NCBI GenBank assembly: GCA_964477925.1
Contig: CAYZFT010000001.1
Coordinates: forward strand, 1 to 58,215
Direction of reading: 5' to 3'
From: an uncultured Candidatus Saccharibacteria bacterium
GTDB taxonomy: Bacteria > Patescibacteriota > Saccharimonadia > Saccharimonadales > UBA4665
Length of the DNA stretch: 58,215 bases
In this document: positions 8,601 to 48,803 of the stretch, piece after piece
How positions within the stretch are numbered: the stretch's first letter is position 1
How the letters are laid out: each line of letters begins with the position of its first letter
Program-made: the position numbers and the translations under genes
The notes under the pieces: generated by a model
The model's input: only the letters and a program-made list of their open reading frames with translations
Database searches by the model: none
Told to the model about the DNA's origin: nothing

Positions 8601-8945
8601 CTATACGGTGGCTTGCAACATAACATCCCGAGCCGCTTTATTGGCGAGATTGCCGGTGAACACGTTGAGCAACAAACACTAATGCCGAGTTTTGGGCGTG
8701 CAAACATGGGCGAAGCTGATGGCTATGATGACTTTGCACAAGTTTCGCCAGGCGATGATTTTGCAGCGCCTGTCGACAACGAGCCACGCTATGTGCCTGA
8801 TTTTGCCGAAGGTGACGGGGTGAGCCACCAGCTTTTTGGCGAAGGGACGATTGTCGAGCTCAGCGGAGATATTGCTGCCATATATTTTAAAGGGAAGGGG
8901 CTCAAAAAACTGAATGTTGCCTTCGCGCCCCTCAAGAAATTATGA
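5676..8945 (+). CDS. pcrA: ATP-dependent DNA helicase UvrD/PcrA, interrupted by an intein
   Basis: Contains Walker A AGAGSGKT, DEYQDTN, VGDDWQ / SIYSWRGAD (motif III split by the insert), QNYRS, TLHAAKGLEF and YVGMTRA. The exteins total 731 aa. GTG start. Confidence 0.93.
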   Translation: MQNEHILTGLNPEQRRAVETTEGPLLIQAGAGSGKTKTLTHRIAYLIQTSQATPYSILAVTFTNKAAREMRERVAALLGQAADNRGFMPYMGTFHSICVRLLRMDGEHIGIPRSFVIFDESDRQAAVKRISRELHIDDKAFPARIIASLISSAKNDLIDPAEYAERAGSPAEQVTAQVYPRYQKALHEAKALDFDDLIGRTVELLTGNKVVRDKWRQQFSHIMIDEYQDTNAAQYKLVQLLIGSHKNIAVVGDDWQCLPKGVLVKTPKGQVAIEDIAQGDAVMAASGYGHTHEARVSSRKEFDYDGELIRLTTASGIVTRATPNHLLFGRFESTDRYLVYLMYASAKGFRIGIAKGTRYDGRKDDIGLRVRANQERAERMWVLETCATKQDAQYYEALYAYRYGIPMMVFHAYANRSMALTQKHIDTLYAGIDTVTRAHELMRELGIDFDYPHFLPQATTRGEIKRANVNVVLFGDKRKTTSSPWSASRLSVNTTDSGLLETFRAAGYSVRTARAGTWRVELHNLDYGTIEAALEVLDARKITVSRYAFMTDQKFIFLPASQFHVGMSVPIEQGGRIIGDKIVRVERVAYVGKVYDLDVEKVHNYLAEGMVVHNSIYSWRGADFRNILRFERDYPDCTVIKLEQNYRSTRHILDAAHGVVARNQNRSDKKLWTEAGDGRPVQVRQVMTERAEAEAIVRAVKTGVDADVRRFKDFAVLYRTNAQSRAVEETFMQYGIPYRVVGGQRFYDRKEIKDLMAYLRLIYQPDDRVSFERIVNVPTRGVGAKSLENFNGWAAANGLTMGDALDRASECDSLKGKAMTGLVELSATVRDFRVQAETMLPDELIEKLVQKIGYLQFLEDGTAQGESKQENVRELIGVAQAYQAVGLSGFLEEVALVTDLDNANFGDNVVTLMTLHAAKGLEFPVVFMIGMEETIFPHSRALYDQSEMEEERRLCYVGMTRAREELYLLHAAGRSLYGGLQHNIPSRFIGEIAGEHVEQQTLMPSFGRANMGEADGYDDFAQVSPGDDFAAPVDNEPRYVPDFAEGDGVSHQLFGEGTIVELSGDIAAIYFKGKGLKKLNVAFAPLKKL
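6444..7517 (+). mobile_element. intein (358 aa) inserted in helicase motif III
   Basis: Begins with Cys (CLPKGVLVKTPKG). TPNH fits block B. Ends VYDLDVEKVHNYLAEGMVVHN, followed by the +1 Ser of SIYSWRGA. Removal restores VGDDWQSIYSWRGAD in frame. Confidence 0.9.
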
Positions 8946-9403
8946 TGCGCCATTTGAAACTTGTTGGCGGTAGGGTTGCGTTTTGGCTCGGCTGGCCACT
9001 CTGGTGGCTGCTCATGCACCATAGTGAGCGTTCTCGTGTTTTGCTCGTAGCCGACAATCATGTGCTATTGACGCGGGGTACGCTGAGTGCAGGCGAATGG
9101 AGCTTGCCAGGTGGCGGGTTACACCATGGTGAGGCCGCAAAGATAGGGGCCTGCCGCGAAATAGACGAAGAGCTCGGTATTAGTATTACCGCCGACCAAG
9201 TGCGCGAGCTGGGCGTTGAGCCGACACGTAACAGCGGTATAGCCTACACAGCGTACTACATGGTCACAGAGCTTGAGACGCGTCAAACGCCTGCAGCTCG
9301 ACTCGAAGTTGCAGATGCCCGCTGGGTATCGGCAAAAGAGATACCGACGCTAGTAGTCGATGCGGCGACACTACGGGCGCTTGAACTTTGGGCAGCTTGC
9401 TAA
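8942..9403 (+). CDS. Nudix hydrolase
   Basis: Nudix box GGGLHHGEAAKIGACREIDEELGI. ATGA overlap with the helicase stop. Confidence 0.85.
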   Translation: MMRHLKLVGGRVAFWLGWPLWWLLMHHSERSRVLLVADNHVLLTRGTLSAGEWSLPGGGLHHGEAAKIGACREIDEELGISITADQVRELGVEPTRNSGIAYTAYYMVTELETRQTPAARLEVADARWVSAKEIPTLVVDAATLRALELWAAC

Positions 9404-22176: not shown

Positions 22177-25164
22177 ATGAGACGGTACAACCCCAAAGAA
22201 ATTGAGCCCAAGTGGCAGCTTGCATGGGATGAGGCGCAGGTTTACAAAGCAGACCTCAAGAGCGACAAGCCCAAATACATCGCCATGAGTATGTTTAACT
22301 ACCCAAGTGGTGCGGGCATACACATTGGACACGCCATGAATTACACCATCAGTGATGTCATGGCACGTTTCAAGCGACAGCAGGGCTACGAGAGTTACCA
22401 TCCGGTTGGCTGGGATGCCTTCGGCTTGCCCGCAGAAAACTTTGCAATCAAAACTGGTGTATCGCCGCAGGCTAGCATGGCCACAATTATTCCAAGCTAC
22501 CACACGCAGTACAAAGCCATGGGCTGGAGCAACGACTGGAGCAAAGAAATCGCCACACACGAGCCCATTTACTACAAATGGACGCAATGGATTTTTGCCG
22601 AAATGTTTAAGCGGGGTATGGCCTACCAAGATGCTCGCCAACAGTGGTGGTGCGAAAAGTGCCAAACGGTGCTCGCCAACGAGCAAGTGATTGACGGCAA
22701 ATGCTGGCGGCATGATGCGGCCGACGACGCTGAAGTCAAGAAAAAAGAAGTCAAACAGTGGTTTTTCAAAGTTACCGACTACGCCGAGGAAATGCTGGAG
22801 GCTACCGATGACCTCGACTGGTCAGAAGTGGTCAAAACCGCGCAAAAAAACTGGATCGGCAAATCCCAAGGCGCCGAAGTCACATTCGCCCTTGCAGACG
22901 ACGAGTCTCGAGTTGCGAGTCTCGAGCCTCGCGACTCGATTACGGTGTTTACGACCCGACCCGATACGCTTTACGGCGCAACGTTTATGGTGCTTGCTCC
23001 CGAGCACGAGCTGGTGGCTCAGATTACGACCGCCACACAGCGGGCATCGGTCGAGGCTTACATTGCTAGTGCGGTCAAAAAGTCAGAAGTCGAGCGCCAA
23101 GAAAACAAGGTCAAAACGGGTGTTTTCACCGGTGCGTTCGCAATCAACCCTGTAAACGGGCTGAAAATACCCATTTGGATTGCCGACTATGTCCTCACCG
23201 GCTACGGCACGGGCGCAATCATGGCCGTCCCAGCCCACGACGAGCGTGACAACGAATTTGCCAAGAAGTTCGATTTGCCGATTCGGCAGGTCATTATGCA
23301 GTGCGAAGAAGATTCAACCAACCCGACTCAGAAGGGCTTCAAAGAAGTCGTTCGTGATACGGTCATAGCACACCTTCGGAATCAGCAAAATGGCAAATTT
23401 GCATTGCTAAAATGGCATGGCACACTCGAGGGCACAACCACGGCCATTATGGGCGGGATTGAAAGCGGGCAGACAGCAGAGCAGGCCGCAGCGACAGAAA
23501 TACTCGAGGAAGCGGGTCTTCGCGGTGTCCGGTTTGTCAAGAAACTTCGTTGGCTCAGTGGGGCGCGTTACTGCGCATCCCATAAACAAGAAAACAGAAA
23601 GTCAATCGCGCATACATTATTAGCAGAGATTGATACTGTTAATGACCAACTAGAGATTGACGAGAAAGAAAAACAAACCCACACGCTGATATGGGTTGAT
23701 GAAAATGAAGTTATTGAGAGCTTGACGCCCGACCACCAAAAATTTGTCTGGAAGCAGCTACAAGATGAAACAATAGTTACCGAAGAAGGTGAATTAGTTA
23801 ACTCAGCAGAGTACACGGGTTTGTCTAGTGCTGACGCAAGGGAAAAGATTATTAAAGATCTCGAAGCGAAGGGGCTTGCGAGATTCGTTACGAACTTCCG
23901 CATACGAGACTGGAGTGTGAGCAGGCAACGCTACTGGGGTGCGCCTATTCCAATCATTAACTGCCCGGAGCACGGTGCAGTTTTGGACGAGAAGTTGCCG
24001 GTGCTTTTGCCCGAGCTCGAAGATTTCCAGCCGAGTGGCGATGGTCGCAGCGCACTCGCACGCGCAACTGACTGGCTGAACGTGCCGTGTCCCCTGTGTG
24101 GTAAGCCTGCCGAGCGCGAGACAGACACGCTCGATACTTACATTTGTAGCAGCTGGTATATGCTGCGCTATTTTGACCCCGCCAATGAAGACGCCATCTT
24201 TGACACGACAGTCGCCAACAAATGGATGCCAATCGACTTTTACAACGGCGGTGACCACGCGACGGCACATATGATTTATGCACGGTTTATGACACGCTTT
24301 TTCCATCATATTGGCCTGCTCGAGAGCCCAGAGCCATTCAAACGCTTCTTGTTTAATGGCAAGGTTACGGCCAGCGACGGCACGATGTTTAGCAAAAGCA
24401 AGGGTAACGGCGTCGACCCGCTCGAAATCATCGCACAGGGCTACGGGGCCGATGCACTGCGTACCTACCTCATGTTTGCCGCTCCACTAGACCTCTGGAT
24501 GCGTTGGGACCCACAAGGTGTGCCCGGCACCTACCGCTTTCTCAACCGTGTCTGGAACCTCGTACAAGAGTTCGTCGACATTCGTCATTCCCGTGAAAAT
24601 GGGAATCCAGTAAAAAATATGTCGCTTGGCGACGAAAATAACTGGATCTCCGATCAGGTCGGAGATGACGGTGGCGTGAAAATTTTACGCGTCATCCACC
24701 CTGTCATCAAAAAAGTCACTGCAGACCTTGAGGTGCAAAAGTATAACACCGCTATCGCGACAATGATGAAGTGTGTCAATGACCTCTACGAGCTCAAAGC
24801 CAAAGACTTATACAATAACCGCGCAAGCTGGCAGTTCGCCCTCGAAAGCCTTGTGGCGCTTGTGGCACCATTTGCACCGCACATCGCCGATGAACTGTGG
24901 CGTGACCTCGGTCGTGGCACAAGTGTCCAGCGTGAAAGTTGGCCGATTTTCGACGAGGTCTATTGTGTCGCCGACACGGTGACACTCGCCGTGCAGGTCA
25001 ATGGCAAACTACGAGGCACGGTGACCGTGGCAGCCGATGCCGACGAAGCCACATCGGTCGATGCAGCCAAAGCTGACGAAAAAGTCGCGAGCTACCTCGC
25101 CGAAGGCACCATCCTCAAAACTATCTACGTCAAAAACAAGCTCATAAGCTTTGTTGTACGCTAG
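22177..25164 (+). CDS. leuS: leucine--tRNA ligase, with extra inserted segments
   Basis: Contains the HIGH motif (GIHIGHAMNY), TTRPDTLYGATF, AVPAHDERDNEFAKKF, RDWSVSRQRYWGAPIP and a KMSKS-like FSKSKGNG. At 995 aa it is longer than typical bacterial LeuRS. TGgTATAAT (22163-22168) lies 8 nt before the ATG. Confidence 0.95.
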   Translation: MRRYNPKEIEPKWQLAWDEAQVYKADLKSDKPKYIAMSMFNYPSGAGIHIGHAMNYTISDVMARFKRQQGYESYHPVGWDAFGLPAENFAIKTGVSPQASMATIIPSYHTQYKAMGWSNDWSKEIATHEPIYYKWTQWIFAEMFKRGMAYQDARQQWWCEKCQTVLANEQVIDGKCWRHDAADDAEVKKKEVKQWFFKVTDYAEEMLEATDDLDWSEVVKTAQKNWIGKSQGAEVTFALADDESRVASLEPRDSITVFTTRPDTLYGATFMVLAPEHELVAQITTATQRASVEAYIASAVKKSEVERQENKVKTGVFTGAFAINPVNGLKIPIWIADYVLTGYGTGAIMAVPAHDERDNEFAKKFDLPIRQVIMQCEEDSTNPTQKGFKEVVRDTVIAHLRNQQNGKFALLKWHGTLEGTTTAIMGGIESGQTAEQAAATEILEEAGLRGVRFVKKLRWLSGARYCASHKQENRKSIAHTLLAEIDTVNDQLEIDEKEKQTHTLIWVDENEVIESLTPDHQKFVWKQLQDETIVTEEGELVNSAEYTGLSSADAREKIIKDLEAKGLARFVTNFRIRDWSVSRQRYWGAPIPIINCPEHGAVLDEKLPVLLPELEDFQPSGDGRSALARATDWLNVPCPLCGKPAERETDTLDTYICSSWYMLRYFDPANEDAIFDTTVANKWMPIDFYNGGDHATAHMIYARFMTRFFHHIGLLESPEPFKRFLFNGKVTASDGTMFSKSKGNGVDPLEIIAQGYGADALRTYLMFAAPLDLWMRWDPQGVPGTYRFLNRVWNLVQEFVDIRHSRENGNPVKNMSLGDENNWISDQVGDDGGVKILRVIHPVIKKVTADLEVQKYNTAIATMMKCVNDLYELKAKDLYNNRASWQFALESLVALVAPFAPHIADELWRDLGRGTSVQRESWPIFDEVYCVADTVTLAVQVNGKLRGTVTVAADADEATSVDAAKADEKVASYLAEGTILKTIYVKNKLISFVVR
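23304..23788 (+). other. Nudix-like domain inserted in LeuRS, bounded by an 8-bp direct repeat
   Basis: KWHGTLEGTTTAIMGGIESGQTAEQAAATEILEEAGL fits G-x5-E-x7-REUxEExGU with E to Q and R to T substitutions. cgaagaag occurs at 23304-23311 and 23781-23788, 477 nt (159 codons) apart. Confidence 0.7.
24581..24677 (+). repeat. in-frame palindromic repeat element (three hairpins) inside leuS
   Basis: attccc-gtgaaaat-gggaat at 24587-24606, gtcgc-ttg-gcgac at 24621-24633, and atctccga-tcagg-tcggagat at 24646-24666. Related to pheT 51146-51203. Confidence 0.75.
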
Positions 25165-25425: not shown

Positions 25426-25938
25426 ATGGCAAGCAATCGTCACCTCGGTCGTATCGTAGCGCTGCAGACGTTATATGAGCAAGATTTTCGCCTTGAAGCA
25501 GGTGACGATAGTTTTAACCTGGACGAAGTTCTGGCGCGCAATATAGCTCGCTACAAGTCAACACTCGATGACGTTGGGTTTGTCAAAGTGTTTGTGCTGG
25601 GCGTAACCGAGCATATTACTGAGCTCGATGATGAGCTTCGCCCGCTGGCGCCCGAGTGGCCGCTTGAGAGTATCGCCCGTATGGACCGCATTATGTTACG
25701 CATGGGGCTCTATGAGCTCAAATACGCTACCGATGTCCCGCCAAAGGTTGCCATTAACGAGTCGGTTGAACTTGCCAAGGCGTTCGGTGCCGAGAACTCA
25801 AGCAAATTTATCAACGGAGTGCTTGGCACGGCGCTCAAGAACATAACTAGCGAAGCCACGCCTACAACCGAAGAGATTCCTTCTGCTGAGCCGCCCAAGA
25901 CAACGCCGAAGCCCAAAGCCAAGAAAGCAACCACATGA
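25426..25938 (+). CDS. nusB: transcription antitermination factor NusB, with low-complexity C-terminal tail
   Basis: Contains RIVALQTLYEQDF and AINESVELAKAFGAENSSKFINGVLG. Confidence 0.9.
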   Translation: MASNRHLGRIVALQTLYEQDFRLEAGDDSFNLDEVLARNIARYKSTLDDVGFVKVFVLGVTEHITELDDELRPLAPEWPLESIARMDRIMLRMGLYELKYATDVPPKVAINESVELAKAFGAENSSKFINGVLGTALKNITSEATPTTEEIPSAEPPKTTPKPKAKKATT

Positions 25939-26567
25939 GCACTCGCAAACGCAAGCACCACAACACTGCACCTCAGCATGAGGCGCATATCCCTATTAGC
26001 CCTGCACCCAAACCAGCCGCCGTTCCCGAGGAGGCGCAAGCTCACAAGAACCCGCTCGATGGCGTGAAAGACGTTGTCAAAAGCCCACTCGATGGTTTTC
26101 GCCGTTTTGTGACGCGTCGCCCATCGATACAAGAGATTGTGCAAGAGACGACATCTGGTGGCATTGTCTATCGCCACAACGCCAAAACAGGCGCGGTCGA
26201 GATATTACTCATCAAAGACGCCAAAAACCGCTGGACAATCCCCAAAGGACACGTCGAAGAAGGCGAAGAGCCAAAAGACACCGCCGAGCGCGAAATCCGT
26301 GAAGAAACCGGCCTGCAAGAGATGCGTATGTCGCACTGGCTCGGCAAGGTTGCGTTTCGCTACCGCCGCAACCGCACATTGGTGCTCATGACGATGCATA
26401 TCTACCTCGTAGAAGGCAAGGGCGAGACCGACCGTTTGCACCCCGAAGATTGGCTCAGTGACATTCAGTGGCTGCCCGCCGGTGAGGCAATCGAGGCGAT
26501 TGCCTACGAAGACATCGGTAAGCTGATGTTAGTCGGCATGAAAAAAGTAAGGGACGGAAAGGCTTAA
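25935..26567 (+). CDS. Nudix hydrolase with ~70-aa N-terminal extension
   Basis: Canonical Nudix box GHVEEGEEPKDTAEREIREETGL. Confidence 0.88.
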   Translation: MSTRKRKHHNTAPQHEAHIPISPAPKPAAVPEEAQAHKNPLDGVKDVVKSPLDGFRRFVTRRPSIQEIVQETTSGGIVYRHNAKTGAVEILLIKDAKNRWTIPKGHVEEGEEPKDTAEREIREETGLQEMRMSHWLGKVAFRYRRNRTLVLMTMHIYLVEGKGETDRLHPEDWLSDIQWLPAGEAIEAIAYEDIGKLMLVGMKKVRDGKA

Positions 26568-26658: not shown

Positions 26659-27357
26659 ATGGATACAACACCATACCAACAGCTAGCACGAGATGCACTC
26701 GGCGGCGATTTTACCAATCTTGACTTACTCATCACAGCACTGACGCACCGTTCGTACCTGAACGAGCATAAAAAAACAGTCAGCGAGCACAACGAACGGC
26801 TCGAATTTTTGGGCGATGCTGTGCTCGAGCTTGTCGTAACTGAGTATCTTTATGGCAACTTTAGCGAGCCCGAAGGTATCTTGACTAACTGGCGTAGCAG
26901 CTTAGTGCGCACCGAGAGCATTAGCGCCGCAGGGTCCCGTTTGGGCCTTGAGCCACTCTTGCGCCTCAGCCGCGGCGAGAAGCATGGCACTGATCGTGCT
27001 CGCATGCAGATTTTGGCCAATGCATTTGAGGCTGTTACTGGCGCACTCTACCTCGAGCGTGGCTATGAAGCATCCAAGATTTTCATCACCGAGAATATCC
27101 TCAGCACCTTCGAGCAAATCCTCCAAACGGGCTCATGGATGGACCCCAAATCGCGCTTGCAAGAAGTCGTACAAGGGCAGGGTGGTGCGACGCCAAGCTA
27201 CCGCGTGCTCAGCGAGGTAGGCCCCGACCACGAAAAGCTCTTTACCGTTGGCGTCTATGTCGACGAGAAAAAGCTCGGTGAAGGCTCCGGCCACAGCAAA
27301 CAAACCGCCCAAGTCTCCGCCGCCACCGCCGCCCTCAAAAAGCTAACAAAAGAGTAG
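26659..27357 (+). CDS. rnc: ribonuclease III
   Basis: Signature ERLEFLGDAVLELVV and a C-terminal dsRBD (GPDHEKLFTVGVYV...GHSKQTAQVSAATAAL). Confidence 0.93.
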   Translation: MDTTPYQQLARDALGGDFTNLDLLITALTHRSYLNEHKKTVSEHNERLEFLGDAVLELVVTEYLYGNFSEPEGILTNWRSSLVRTESISAAGSRLGLEPLLRLSRGEKHGTDRARMQILANAFEAVTGALYLERGYEASKIFITENILSTFEQILQTGSWMDPKSRLQEVVQGQGGATPSYRVLSEVGPDHEKLFTVGVYVDEKKLGEGSGHSKQTAQVSAATAALKKLTKE

Positions 27358-47465: not shown

Positions 47466-48076
47466 TGCGAGTACTTGTGTTTGGTGACAGCATTGGCCAA
47501 GGTTTCGGCGACCCGAGCGGTGGTTGGGTAGAAGCACTTAAGCGTCACTATTTAGCCCTCGGCACTGAAATTGAGATTTTCAACATGAGTATTTCGGGCG
47601 ACACGAGCCAAAACGTACTTGCGCGTATCGAAAATGAGACCGTTGTGCGGCGTTGGCCAAAAGACCCAGTCATGATTGTGCTCGCCGTCGGCGTGAACGA
47701 CACCCAAAAACATTTCAGAGATGTCAAGACAACAGCCGATGATTTCCAAACTAACTTTGAGAGCATGGTCAAGATAGCCCGTCGTGTTGCCGACAAGCTG
47801 CTCATAGTAGGCCTAACGCCCTGCATTGATGTACGGCTTAACCCAGCACCATGGAACAAAAACATCACCTTTAGTAATGAGCGCATCGGCAAGTACGAAA
47901 AACTGCTCGAAGAAGTGGCCGAGCGCCGCGAGGTACCGTTTGTGCCGCTATGGGAGGGCTTGGCCAATAAATGGCGTGTCGAAGACATCTTTCCGGATGG
48001 TTTGCACCCGACCGCTGCCGGTCATGAGCTTATTTTGCACATCGTTCAGCCCGAGATTGAGGAGCTATTTGTATGA
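47465..48076 (+). CDS. SGNH/GDSL hydrolase
   Basis: Contains VLVFGDSIGQG, GVNDT and DGLHPT. Confidence 0.85.
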   Translation: MRVLVFGDSIGQGFGDPSGGWVEALKRHYLALGTEIEIFNMSISGDTSQNVLARIENETVVRRWPKDPVMIVLAVGVNDTQKHFRDVKTTADDFQTNFESMVKIARRVADKLLIVGLTPCIDVRLNPAPWNKNITFSNERIGKYEKLLEEVAERREVPFVPLWEGLANKWRVEDIFPDGLHPTAAGHELILHIVQPEIEELFV

Positions 48077-48399
48077 GCCGTGTCAAAATAACCATTACCG
48101 TACCAATCGACTATGCCGATGCCGTGCGACGTGCCTTGGGCGATGCTGGGGCGGGCGTACTGGGCAACTACTCGCACTGTAGCTTTTCGACGAGAGGTGT
48201 CGGTCGCTTCATGCCGCAAGACGGCGCGCAACCGTTTATCGGTGCAGTCGGCGGCTACGAAGCAGTCGAAGAAGAAAGGGTCGAAGTTATTTGCGAGCAA
48301 GATAACGCTAAATTTGTCATTGCTGCTATGAAAGCTGCGCACCCATACGAAGAAGTTGCAGTTGACGTTGTTGCAATAATCGAGGAGGACCAATTATGA
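48073..48399 (+). CDS. standalone homolog of the PII-like insert domain of NIF3/YqfO proteins
   Basis: GDAGAGVLGNYSHCSFSTRGVGRFMPQDGAQPFIGAVGGYEAVEEERVEV...AHPYEEVAVDV matches the NIF3 insert-domain pattern. Confidence 0.65.
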   Translation: MSRVKITITVPIDYADAVRRALGDAGAGVLGNYSHCSFSTRGVGRFMPQDGAQPFIGAVGGYEAVEEERVEVICEQDNAKFVIAAMKAAHPYEEVAVDVVAIIEEDQL

Positions 48400-48803
48400 A
48401 AATCGCCAGTCAGATTGTCGAGAGTGCTGAGCTCATGAAGCACACCGAGAACATTAGTGTCATAGCGCACGACCTGATGGACCAATTGCCCGAAGAAGGC
48501 GCGTGGGATATCGAGAGCAAGCTGCGTTATGCTTCGGTCGACATCGTCACTGACATCGCCAACGCCTGTGGTTCGCTAGACCCGCGCGATTCGCTGTACA
48601 AGCTTGGGCATGCCCGTGGCTTGCTTTTTGAGATTATGAGTACGCTCAAAATCGCCCATCGTCTGCGCTTGCTCGAGCTACAGCCTGAGCTTATGCTTGA
48701 GATTGAGCAGACAATCGCCATGCTCGACAAAGAAGCGGCCCGTTTGCCTAAAGTCGCGCGGCAGTGGCTCAAAGAAGCATACCCATCTACAGGAGAAGCT
48801 TGA
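48396..48803 (+). CDS. four-helix-bundle protein (23S rRNA intervening-sequence protein-like)
   Basis: The layout KLRYASVDIVTDIANACG...LGHARGLLFEIMSTLKIA resembles the TIGR02436-type four-helix-bundle family. Confidence 0.5.
   Translation: MKIASQIVESAELMKHTENISVIAHDLMDQLPEEGAWDIESKLRYASVDIVTDIANACGSLDPRDSLYKLGHARGLLFEIMSTLKIAHRLRLLELQPELMLEIEQTIAMLDKEAARLPKVARQWLKEAYPSTGEA

Follow-up and report, generated by a model that had tools for sequence, protein, structure and literature searches.

Aminoacyl-tRNA synthetases (aaRSs) are among the most conserved enzymes, and bacterial leucyl-tRNA synthetase (LeuRS) is structurally well studied. The leuS gene analyzed here comes from an uncultured Candidatus Saccharibacteria bacterium (contig CAYZFT010000001.1, positions 1 to 58,215; this whole stretch of 58,215 nucleotides is called the window below) and encodes a long extra segment inside the CP1 editing domain of the enzyme. 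What is this segment, how did it come to lie there, and does it serve the synthetase that carries it? An initial annotation of the window had proposed that it is a Nudix domain bounded by an in-frame 8-bp direct repeat. We find that profiles and structure models identify it as a Nudix domain, that the domain belongs to a subfamily residing mainly in LeuRS, and that the repeat is fortuitous.

A Nudix domain within the editing domain of LeuRS

We began from the host enzyme. The gene is one uninterrupted open reading frame (ORF) whose product matches the Pfam families tRNA-synt_1 (PF00133), tRNA-synt_1_2, the editing domain (PF13603), and Anticodon_1 (PF08264). As the HIGH motif (aa 49-52), the KMSKS motif in the form FSKSK (aa 738-742), the T-rich motif TTRPDT (aa 259-264) and the AHDxRD motif in the form AHDERD (aa 353-358) are all present, the protein looks fully functional as judged from its sequence. 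PF13603 covers aa 224-383, which corresponds to positions 1-150 of the 185 in the profile, and the N-terminal part of CP1 could be aligned with residues 220-379 of Thermus thermophilus LeuRS. When 120 close LeuRS homologues were aligned, the extra segment was seen to be bounded on the left by ...FAKKFDLPIRQVI (...PIRQVI) and on the right by GELVNS... There are 164 residues between these blocks, in agreement with the length first estimated, compared with 9–13 in insert-less Saccharibacteria LeuRS and ~15 in the T. thermophilus enzyme; KNAASDDECSHEE is the short counterpart of aa 374-537 in the insert-less form of the loop. The insertion loop corresponds approximately to T. thermophilus residues 366-380, and the insert itself lies 15 residues past AHDERD.

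The NUDIX family of Pfam (PF00293; gathering score 21.1 bits) was matched by aa 395-524 of the whole LeuRS with 35.1 bits, and by the excised insert with 40.8 bits (E = 2.7e-10). When the insert alone was modeled with AlphaFold2, using 43 homologous inserts as the alignment, it gave a beta-rich sandwich with a Nudix helix at a mean predicted local distance difference test score (pLDDT) of 93.8 and a predicted template-modeling score (pTM) of 0.87. Searched against the PDB with Foldseek, this model gave 550 hits at E <= 0.001; the 50 that were listed are without exception Nudix-family structures. The top match was the MutT/Nudix protein of Enterococcus faecalis, 2AZW (template-modeling (TM) score 0.73/0.81), followed by the diadenosine tetraphosphate (Ap4A) hydrolase CT771 of Chlamydia trachomatis, Escherichia coli RppH, NUDT15, NudC and the human Ap4A hydrolase (NUDT2). 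A sequence profile search of the PDB agreed, with 2AZW, AvrM14 and the lupin Ap4A hydrolase at E ~1e-11. The domain is also well formed in its host: the full-length model reached a pLDDT of 86.9 and a pTM of 0.76, and across aa 381-540 each block of 10 residues averaged a pLDDT of at least 86, all but one of them at least 90. Altogether, these matches and models show, at the level of predicted structure, that 23296-23787 encodes an independently folding Nudix domain in a surface loop of CP1, as had been proposed.

Compared with the known bacterial LeuRS structures (T. thermophilus 1H3N/2BYT and E. coli 4AQ7/4ARC), the window protein has all the catalytic and editing motifs, places its CP1 as in the bacterial type and agrees in overall fold (target-normalised TM 0.83–0.86; 0.86 for the E. 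coli structure 5omw). Where those structures have a short acidic loop of ~15 residues, however, it has a folded domain of 164 residues, and its relatives, unlike those structures, bear additional inserts at a second site in CP1.

A degenerate Nudix box and the Q-type branch

The peptide that had first pointed to a Nudix box is present at aa 426-448 and reads G426-x5-Q432-x7-T440-E-I-L-E-E-A-G-L. It departs from the full consensus GX5EX7REUXEEXGU at the first Glu, replaced by Q432, and at the Arg, replaced by T440, while E441, E444 and E445 are kept, so the description of the box as near-complete was accurate. In an alignment of 43 diverse LeuRS inserts (A2), G426, E441, E444 and E445 are invariant, and a Lys, an Asn and a Trp further downstream are nearly so. 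This Lys and Asn are K470 and N473 in the window protein (K97 and N100 in A2), and the K..N pair is found in 194/214 domains of the family. A Tyr located 16–18 residues past the Nudix box, in the X-loop, is a marker of diadenosine polyphosphate (ApnA) hydrolases (PMC5389931). Such a Tyr, at +16 to +18, is present in 159 of the 214 family domains; in the window it is Tyr465, at +17.

In these respects the insert resembles the group formed by ApnA hydrolases and RppH (2AZW, CT771, E. coli RppH and NUDT2). They share the alpha/beta/alpha Nudix fold (TM 0.58–0.73), a size of about 150 aa and the metal-binding glutamates of REUxEE, and ApnA hydrolases likewise have a Tyr 17 residues beyond the box. 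Yet members of that group are free-standing proteins, whereas the window domain is embedded in another enzyme, is only 14–20% identical to them and has substitutions at two positions of its box, the first Glu and the Arg.

The substitutions are not peculiar to the window. At the same insertion site we found ~100 inserts with the canonical E...R pattern and ~40 of a type, here called Q-type and including the window copy, in which Q replaces the first Glu while the Arg position holds A, M or T; E and R are thus lost jointly. The nearest neighbor of a Q-type domain was itself Q-type in 48/51 cases, regardless of where the domain was located, and the branch contains free-standing proteins as well. 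For these reasons the Q-type is, by sequence comparison, an old subfamily and not the product of recent decay. Among Q-type locus pairs of related species, taking only those with unsaturated dS, the ratio of nonsynonymous to synonymous substitution rates (dN/dS) of the insert was 0.014–0.058, a codon-level signal which shows that these inserts are strongly constrained by purifying selection.

Some LeuRS proteins carry two or three Nudix domains (P0127, P0128, P0130, P0133 and P0156). In several of them the copies stand in tandem at the N-terminal edge of CP1, a canonical one followed by a Q-type one, an arrangement that recalls a Nudix dimer with a catalytic and a regulatory subunit.

Distribution of the subfamily

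A search with the full-length protein returned Saccharibacteria/Saccharimonadales LeuRS as its relatives. A long insert occupies the window's site in 79/120 of the close homologues, and nearly all of these inserts are Nudix domains. None of the outcomes that, according to the initial annotation, would have refuted it was observed. The insert alone, searched exhaustively against 1.84 billion representatives, matched just 183 proteins at E <= 0.001, and 103 of the 150 best matches were LeuRS. In the CP1 loop of the window type we count ~170 instances of the domain, in more than 160 LeuRS proteins of Saccharibacteria/Patescibacteria. In all, three positions in LeuRS are used, namely this loop, a site before WIGKS and a site between WIGKS and TTRPDT, and ~45 further instances of the subfamily are free-standing proteins. 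A scan of GTDB contigs with a Q-type alignment (A3), which covers the window's subtype only, detected that subtype in 65 species representatives at 46–63% identity. Carriers in GTDB are almost all labelled as Saccharibacteria or Patescibacteria metagenome-assembled genomes (MAGs), and one cluster of LeuRS with both a Nudix and a Ham1 domain is labelled Paceibacterota. These searches show a distinct Nudix subfamily which, in public sequence data, is found mainly within the LeuRS of Saccharibacteria and other Patescibacteria. The architecture is thus not a one-off; the window has one allele of a widespread and variable insertion site.

Several relatives of the domain occur in other settings. A prolyl-tRNA synthetase of 643 aa (P0187; PF00587, PF03129 and PF09180) has a Nudix domain of the same subfamily at aa 398-515, between its anticodon-binding domain and its C-terminal domain. 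In other Patescibacteria LeuRS proteins (P0141/P0275, 1330 aa; P0107, 1147 aa; P0126, 1155 aa) the Nudix insert is accompanied by a Ham1/RdgB domain or by a Ser-hydrolase/alpha-beta-hydrolase domain. The Ham1/RdgB non-canonical NTP pyrophosphatase domain spans aa 984-1167, and P0275 is named in NCBI for this domain and not as a LeuRS. The closest free-standing homologue (P0138, 163 aa) is encoded by a gene that ends 2 bp upstream of a leuS gene for a 951-aa LeuRS that itself bears a Nudix domain, and the gene of another (P0173) follows fpg at a distance of 4 bp (L072, L073). A conserved linkage of the free-standing homologues to leuS was considered and rejected, as it was seen in 1/5 contexts.

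Gain, loss and exchange at the loop

Over 788 core columns the window LeuRS is 89.2% identical to P0006 and 87.7% identical to P0011, both of which lack an insert here, and 83–85% identical to a further insert-less group. In place of the insert, P0006, P0011 and this group share the linker xNxAxDDECSHxE. Core identity to the carriers of Q-type inserts, on the other hand, is only 64–76%, and in a neighbor-joining tree of the core the window protein nests within the insert-less clade. In a sliding-window comparison of identity the backbone was nearer to the insert-less clade on either flank, as far as the junctions themselves, and recombinant flanks were rejected on this ground. The gene order leuS, a small bL32-like ORF, nusB, a Nudix gene for 210 aa and rnc is common to the window and to the loci of P0006 and P0011. 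Given the shared 13-residue linker, a gain in the window's lineage may be more likely than repeated loss in its relatives.

P0006 and P0011 differ from the window in a second way, as they bear an ASCH domain at another site of CP1 and the window protein has none. In their genes (L067:1067-3901 and L066:6001-8787) an ASCH-type insert of 118 aa (PF04266) is located between the GAExxF strand and VFTTRPDT; at the equivalent site (~22888-22950) the window has only a linker of 21 residues, ALADDESRVASLEPRDSITV. Two insertions or deletions of whole domains thus separate orthologues whose cores are 89% identical. An additional ORF of 145 aa downstream of leuS in L066 contained no hidden Nudix domain (hhalign probability 0.1%).

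Across the core tree the canonical, Q-type, other and empty states of the loop are interleaved, and because of this the loop behaves, in our sequence sample, as a hot-spot of gain, loss and swapping, that is, as a variable cassette position. One LeuRS (P0075, 837 aa) retains a 36-residue remnant, AWSKSDATSPPKDGLEKDARDTVIAYLQEEGVFTEE, matching the first ~26 and the last ~8 residues of a Q-type insert; it looks like the scar of an internal deletion, which suggests that losses occur. Three others (P0056, P0061 and P0062) have an unrelated insert of ~116–125 residues in the same loop, beginning ...YTVIEASLDWDDAEGGLKEFGTLEVRE...; P0056, the one of the three that was scanned, gave no Pfam match in this segment at E <= 0.001.

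The octamer repeat and base composition

The two copies of the octamer CGAAGAAG were found exactly where the initial annotation had placed them, 477 nt apart, and each spells the codons GAA-GAA (Glu-Glu) at a junction. Their role as a boundary or excision signal did not hold up. The word is over-represented: shuffled sequence would yield 1.6 copies, whereas the window has 11, every one of them on the + strand. Across the window a shared 8-mer between two stretches of 30–45 nt placed 477 nt apart turned up in 0.7–2% of trials. Of 34 leuS genes from relatives that share the insert, not one has a junction repeat of at least 8 nt, the longest being 5–7 nt. Moreover, the empty site of the insert-less L066 also carries CGAAGAAGG (caC GAA GAA Ggc), matching the right copy. 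The left copy is part of the acidic linker at the N-terminus of the module itself, and at this position other Q-type carriers have C-E-D-D or other residues. We take the repeat to be chance, with no role as far as these sequences indicate: the octamer is a common word, 34 relatives lack it at their junctions, and L066 has it where the insert is missing. Repeat-mediated excision and target-site duplication were rejected on the same grounds. Four of the 11 copies lie within 47908-48498.

The insert had also been described as AT-richer than the flanking gene. Its GC content at third codon positions (GC3) is indeed lower, 0.40–0.52 against 0.60–0.72 for the remainder of leuS. The insert is likewise poorer in GC3 than its host gene in 30/34 relatives (mean difference -0.073), and for that reason the dip, on this compositional comparison, belongs to the domain as such and does not testify to a recent import. 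A foreign origin deduced from GC content was rejected accordingly. Of the suggestion that the insertion is mobile, a weak evolutionary sense survives, in that presence and absence vary between close relatives, whereas a mobile element bounded by the repeat does not.

Proposed function and alternative explanations

On balance we favour, as somewhat better than an even bet, the reading that the domain is a passenger: a nucleoside-polyphosphate Nudix module lodged in a variable CP1 loop, with an activity that is probably altered or reduced in Q-type copies and with a repeat that plays no role. Such a module is predicted to bind, and would probably still hydrolyse, a nucleoside-polyphosphate compound with Mg2+, its nearest resemblance being to Nudix enzymes of the ApnA-hydrolase/RppH type. 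Most likely it would act as a house-cleaning enzyme carried on an essential, abundant protein, probably without a part in any step of leucylation or editing. We prefer this reading because close relatives lack the insert, because the family has free-standing members, and because unrelated small hydrolase domains (ASCH, Ser hydrolase and Ham1) are also found in the LeuRS of these lineages, as the Nudix family itself is in a ProRS.

Several results weigh against the passenger reading or some part of it. The insert reached no cut-off of the NCBIfam equivalog models, its best scores being 17–19 bits against cut-offs of 116–158; the weak best hits were to RppH models, with 17 bits where 116 would be required. 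As no equivalog cut-off was reached, the substrate class is, on sequence, only a resemblance to ApnA hydrolases and RppH. Inserts with a canonical box scored 25–32 bits, again below the cut-offs (116–118), and membership in a named Nudix enzyme family of NCBIfam was rejected. Catalysis may be lost in the window copy, judging from the failure of the box consensus at Q432 and T440. The window insert is 52–65% identical to all other sampled Q-type inserts, independent of core identity, from which it follows that no recent donor was sampled; recent transfer from a sampled donor was rejected, the insert being at most 65% identical to any sampled copy. Finally, the bias of the subfamily towards the CP1 of LeuRS could mean a coupling with editing or with adenylate chemistry.

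This last point leads to an alternative that we consider unlikely, though it deserves a hearing, in which the domain is an accessory acting in cis on LeuRS. It would destroy Ap4A, diadenosine triphosphate (Ap3A) or adenylate by-products, or sense a nucleotide and thereby modulate the movement of CP1 between aminoacylation and editing states. AaRSs produce Ap4A as a side reaction; Ap4A hydrolases and RppH are among the nearest structures, and the ApnA Tyr marker is present. LeuRS-embedded copies make up the 103/150 closest relatives already mentioned, the three positions at which insertions recur all fall within CP1 or on its border, certain LeuRS proteins have the domain twice or three times, and P0138, the nearest homologue among the free-standing proteins, has its gene 2 bp ahead of a leuS with a Nudix insert. 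It is for the CP1 bias and the position of P0138 that we keep a cis-coupled role under consideration. However, the nearest LeuRS relatives, at 89% core identity, do entirely without the domain, other, unrelated domains occupy the same protein, four of the five free-standing homologues examined do not adjoin leuS, and the same family is also found within a class II enzyme, ProRS.

The joint loss of E and R from the box is why we also retain a non-catalytic role, which seems to us about as doubtful: the Q-type domain would then be a structural, dimerisation or RNA/tRNA-binding module comparable to CFIm25. Both substitutions are found in the window and in the whole Q-type branch, the tandem of a canonical and a Q-type copy in several LeuRS resembles a catalytic/regulatory pair, and non-enzymatic Nudix proteins are documented (PMC5389931). 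Such proteins, CFIm25 among them, have a Nudix fold with an incomplete Nudix box, as does the window domain. The resemblance stops at the metal site, however. CFIm25 is described as lacking key catalytic glutamates, while all three glutamates of REUxEE are invariant in the LeuRS inserts; the loss of metal-binding Glu from the Nudix helix that would mark a non-catalytic Nudix protein is not seen, as E441, E444 and E445 are retained in 43/43 aligned inserts. With K470 and N473 nearly invariant and Tyr465 invariant in the Q-type clade, the pattern is the one to be expected of a maintained metal/phosphate site. The low dN/dS signifies constraint and is compatible with binding or catalysis alike.

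A recent mobile or artefactual insertion, be it an excisable element bounded by the 8-bp repeat, an intein or an assembly chimera, we regard as highly improbable. The exact in-frame repeat at both junctions, the lower GC3 of the insert and the insert-less state of the nearest backbones all speak for it, but the repeat and the GC3 dip are disposed of by the comparisons with the 34 relatives and with L066 described above, and with at most 65% identity to any sampled copy the insert shows no recent donor. An intein was ruled out, as the junctions (...VI/MQCEED...IVTEE/GELV, slashes marking the boundaries) show no His-Asn and no Cys, Ser or Thr at +1, and the same architecture has been independently assembled in dozens of MAGs.

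A bolder proposal is quite unlikely in our estimate. In it, the LeuRS of Saccharibacteria and other bacteria of the candidate phyla radiation would be a modular platform whose editing-domain loops take up swappable small-hydrolase cassettes (Nudix, ASCH, Ser-hydrolase and Ham1). The Nudix domain would then be a novel aaRS module for quality control or regulation in cis, which might clear Ap4A-type by-products at their source or couple nucleotide state to editing and aminoacylation.

Relation to other synthetases

Full-text literature searching found no paper on this architecture, in line with the initial annotation, which knew of no Nudix module in the editing region of an aaRS. Public annotation pipelines already record PF00293 on these LeuRS proteins, so that the architecture is visible in databases. 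It appears to be undescribed in the literature, though of a known kind, that is, an aaRS with an inserted accessory domain of a known superfamily. Like other aaRSs with accessory domains (the INS/YbaK-like domain of ProRS, the eukaryotic GST, WHEP and EMAPII domains, and parasite-specific inserts), it uses a housekeeping synthetase as scaffold and has a lineage-specific distribution. It differs from them in that the addition has a Nudix pyrophosphohydrolase-type fold, unlisted in the surveys of aaRS architecture that we found, that it is internal to the editing domain and not a terminal fusion, and that it is polymorphic between close relatives.

Strong purifying selection conserves the domain in numerous uncultured Patescibacteria, but close relatives can differ in whether they carry it. 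If catalytically active, it may physically tie nucleotide house-cleaning or Ap4A turnover to translation in minimal genomes, or it may show how genomes that have undergone reduction lodge small enzymes within proteins they cannot do without. In both cases, orthologues with and without the insert at 89% core identity offer a clean natural system for studying the tolerance of an essential enzyme to domain insertion, in an arrangement that is widespread, conserved, polymorphic and experimentally tractable.

Other features of the locus

The features of leuS and its surroundings are collected in Table 1. The two free-standing Nudix genes of the window, pointed out by the initial annotation, do have canonical boxes, but a recent link between them and the insert was not borne out: the product of 25935-26567 matched the insert in BLASTP with E = 0.001 at 27% identity, and that of 8942-9403 gave no significant BLASTP match (E = 4.9). 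The idea that the insert is a recent duplicate of either was rejected, the similarity being at superfamily level only. The 210-aa Nudix gene is kept downstream of leuS in L066 and L067, both without the insert.

Table 1. Coordinates of leuS, its inserted Nudix domain and other features of the window
Feature	Coordinates	Strand	Basis or remarks
leuS, leucyl-tRNA synthetase, 995 aa	22177-25164	+	ORF list, Pfam, full-length AlphaFold2 model
CP1 editing domain, N-terminal part, aa 224-373	22846-23295	+	PF13603; T. thermophilus alignment
T-rich motif TTRPDT	22951-22968	+	motif location in N-terminal part of CP1
AHDERD motif	23233-23250	+	motif location in N-terminal part of CP1
Nudix-fold insert, LeuRS aa 374-537, Q-type	23296-23787	+	PF00293, AlphaFold2, Foldseek, homologous inserts
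Octamer CGAAGAAG, left copy (tgC GAA GAA Gat = C-E-E-D)	23304-23311	+	acidic linker at N-terminus of module
Degenerate Nudix box GGIESGQTAEQAAATEILEEAGL, aa 426-448	23452-23520	+	sequence; 43-insert alignment
Downstream motif YCASHKQENR, aa 465-474	23569-23598	+	Tyr465 17 residues past box; family-domain counts, alignment A2
Octamer CGAAGAAG, right copy (acC GAA GAA Ggt = T-E-E-G)	23781-23788	+	backbone sequence
CP1 editing domain resuming (GELVNS...) to RDWSVSRQRYWG	23788-23904	+	T. thermophilus LeuRS residues 377-487
bL32-like ORF, 51 aa	25246-25401		downstream of leuS; same order in L066, L067
nusB	25426-25938		downstream of leuS; same order in L066, L067
Canonical Nudix gene, 210 aa, box KGHVEEGEEPKDTAEREIREETGL	25935-26567	+	context; 4-bp overlap with end of nusB
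RNase III gene (rnc)	26659-27357		downstream of leuS; same order in L066, L067
Canonical Nudix gene, 153 aa, box GGGLHHGEAAKIGACREIDEELGI	8942-9403	+	context

A second unusual stretch of LeuRS is located in the anticodon-binding region. Positions 24598-24663 (aa 808-829; NGNPVKNMSLGDENNWISDQV...) form a lineage-specific segment with a pLDDT below 50 and a local dip in GC3, which aligns poorly even with the closest relatives (20–27% identity).

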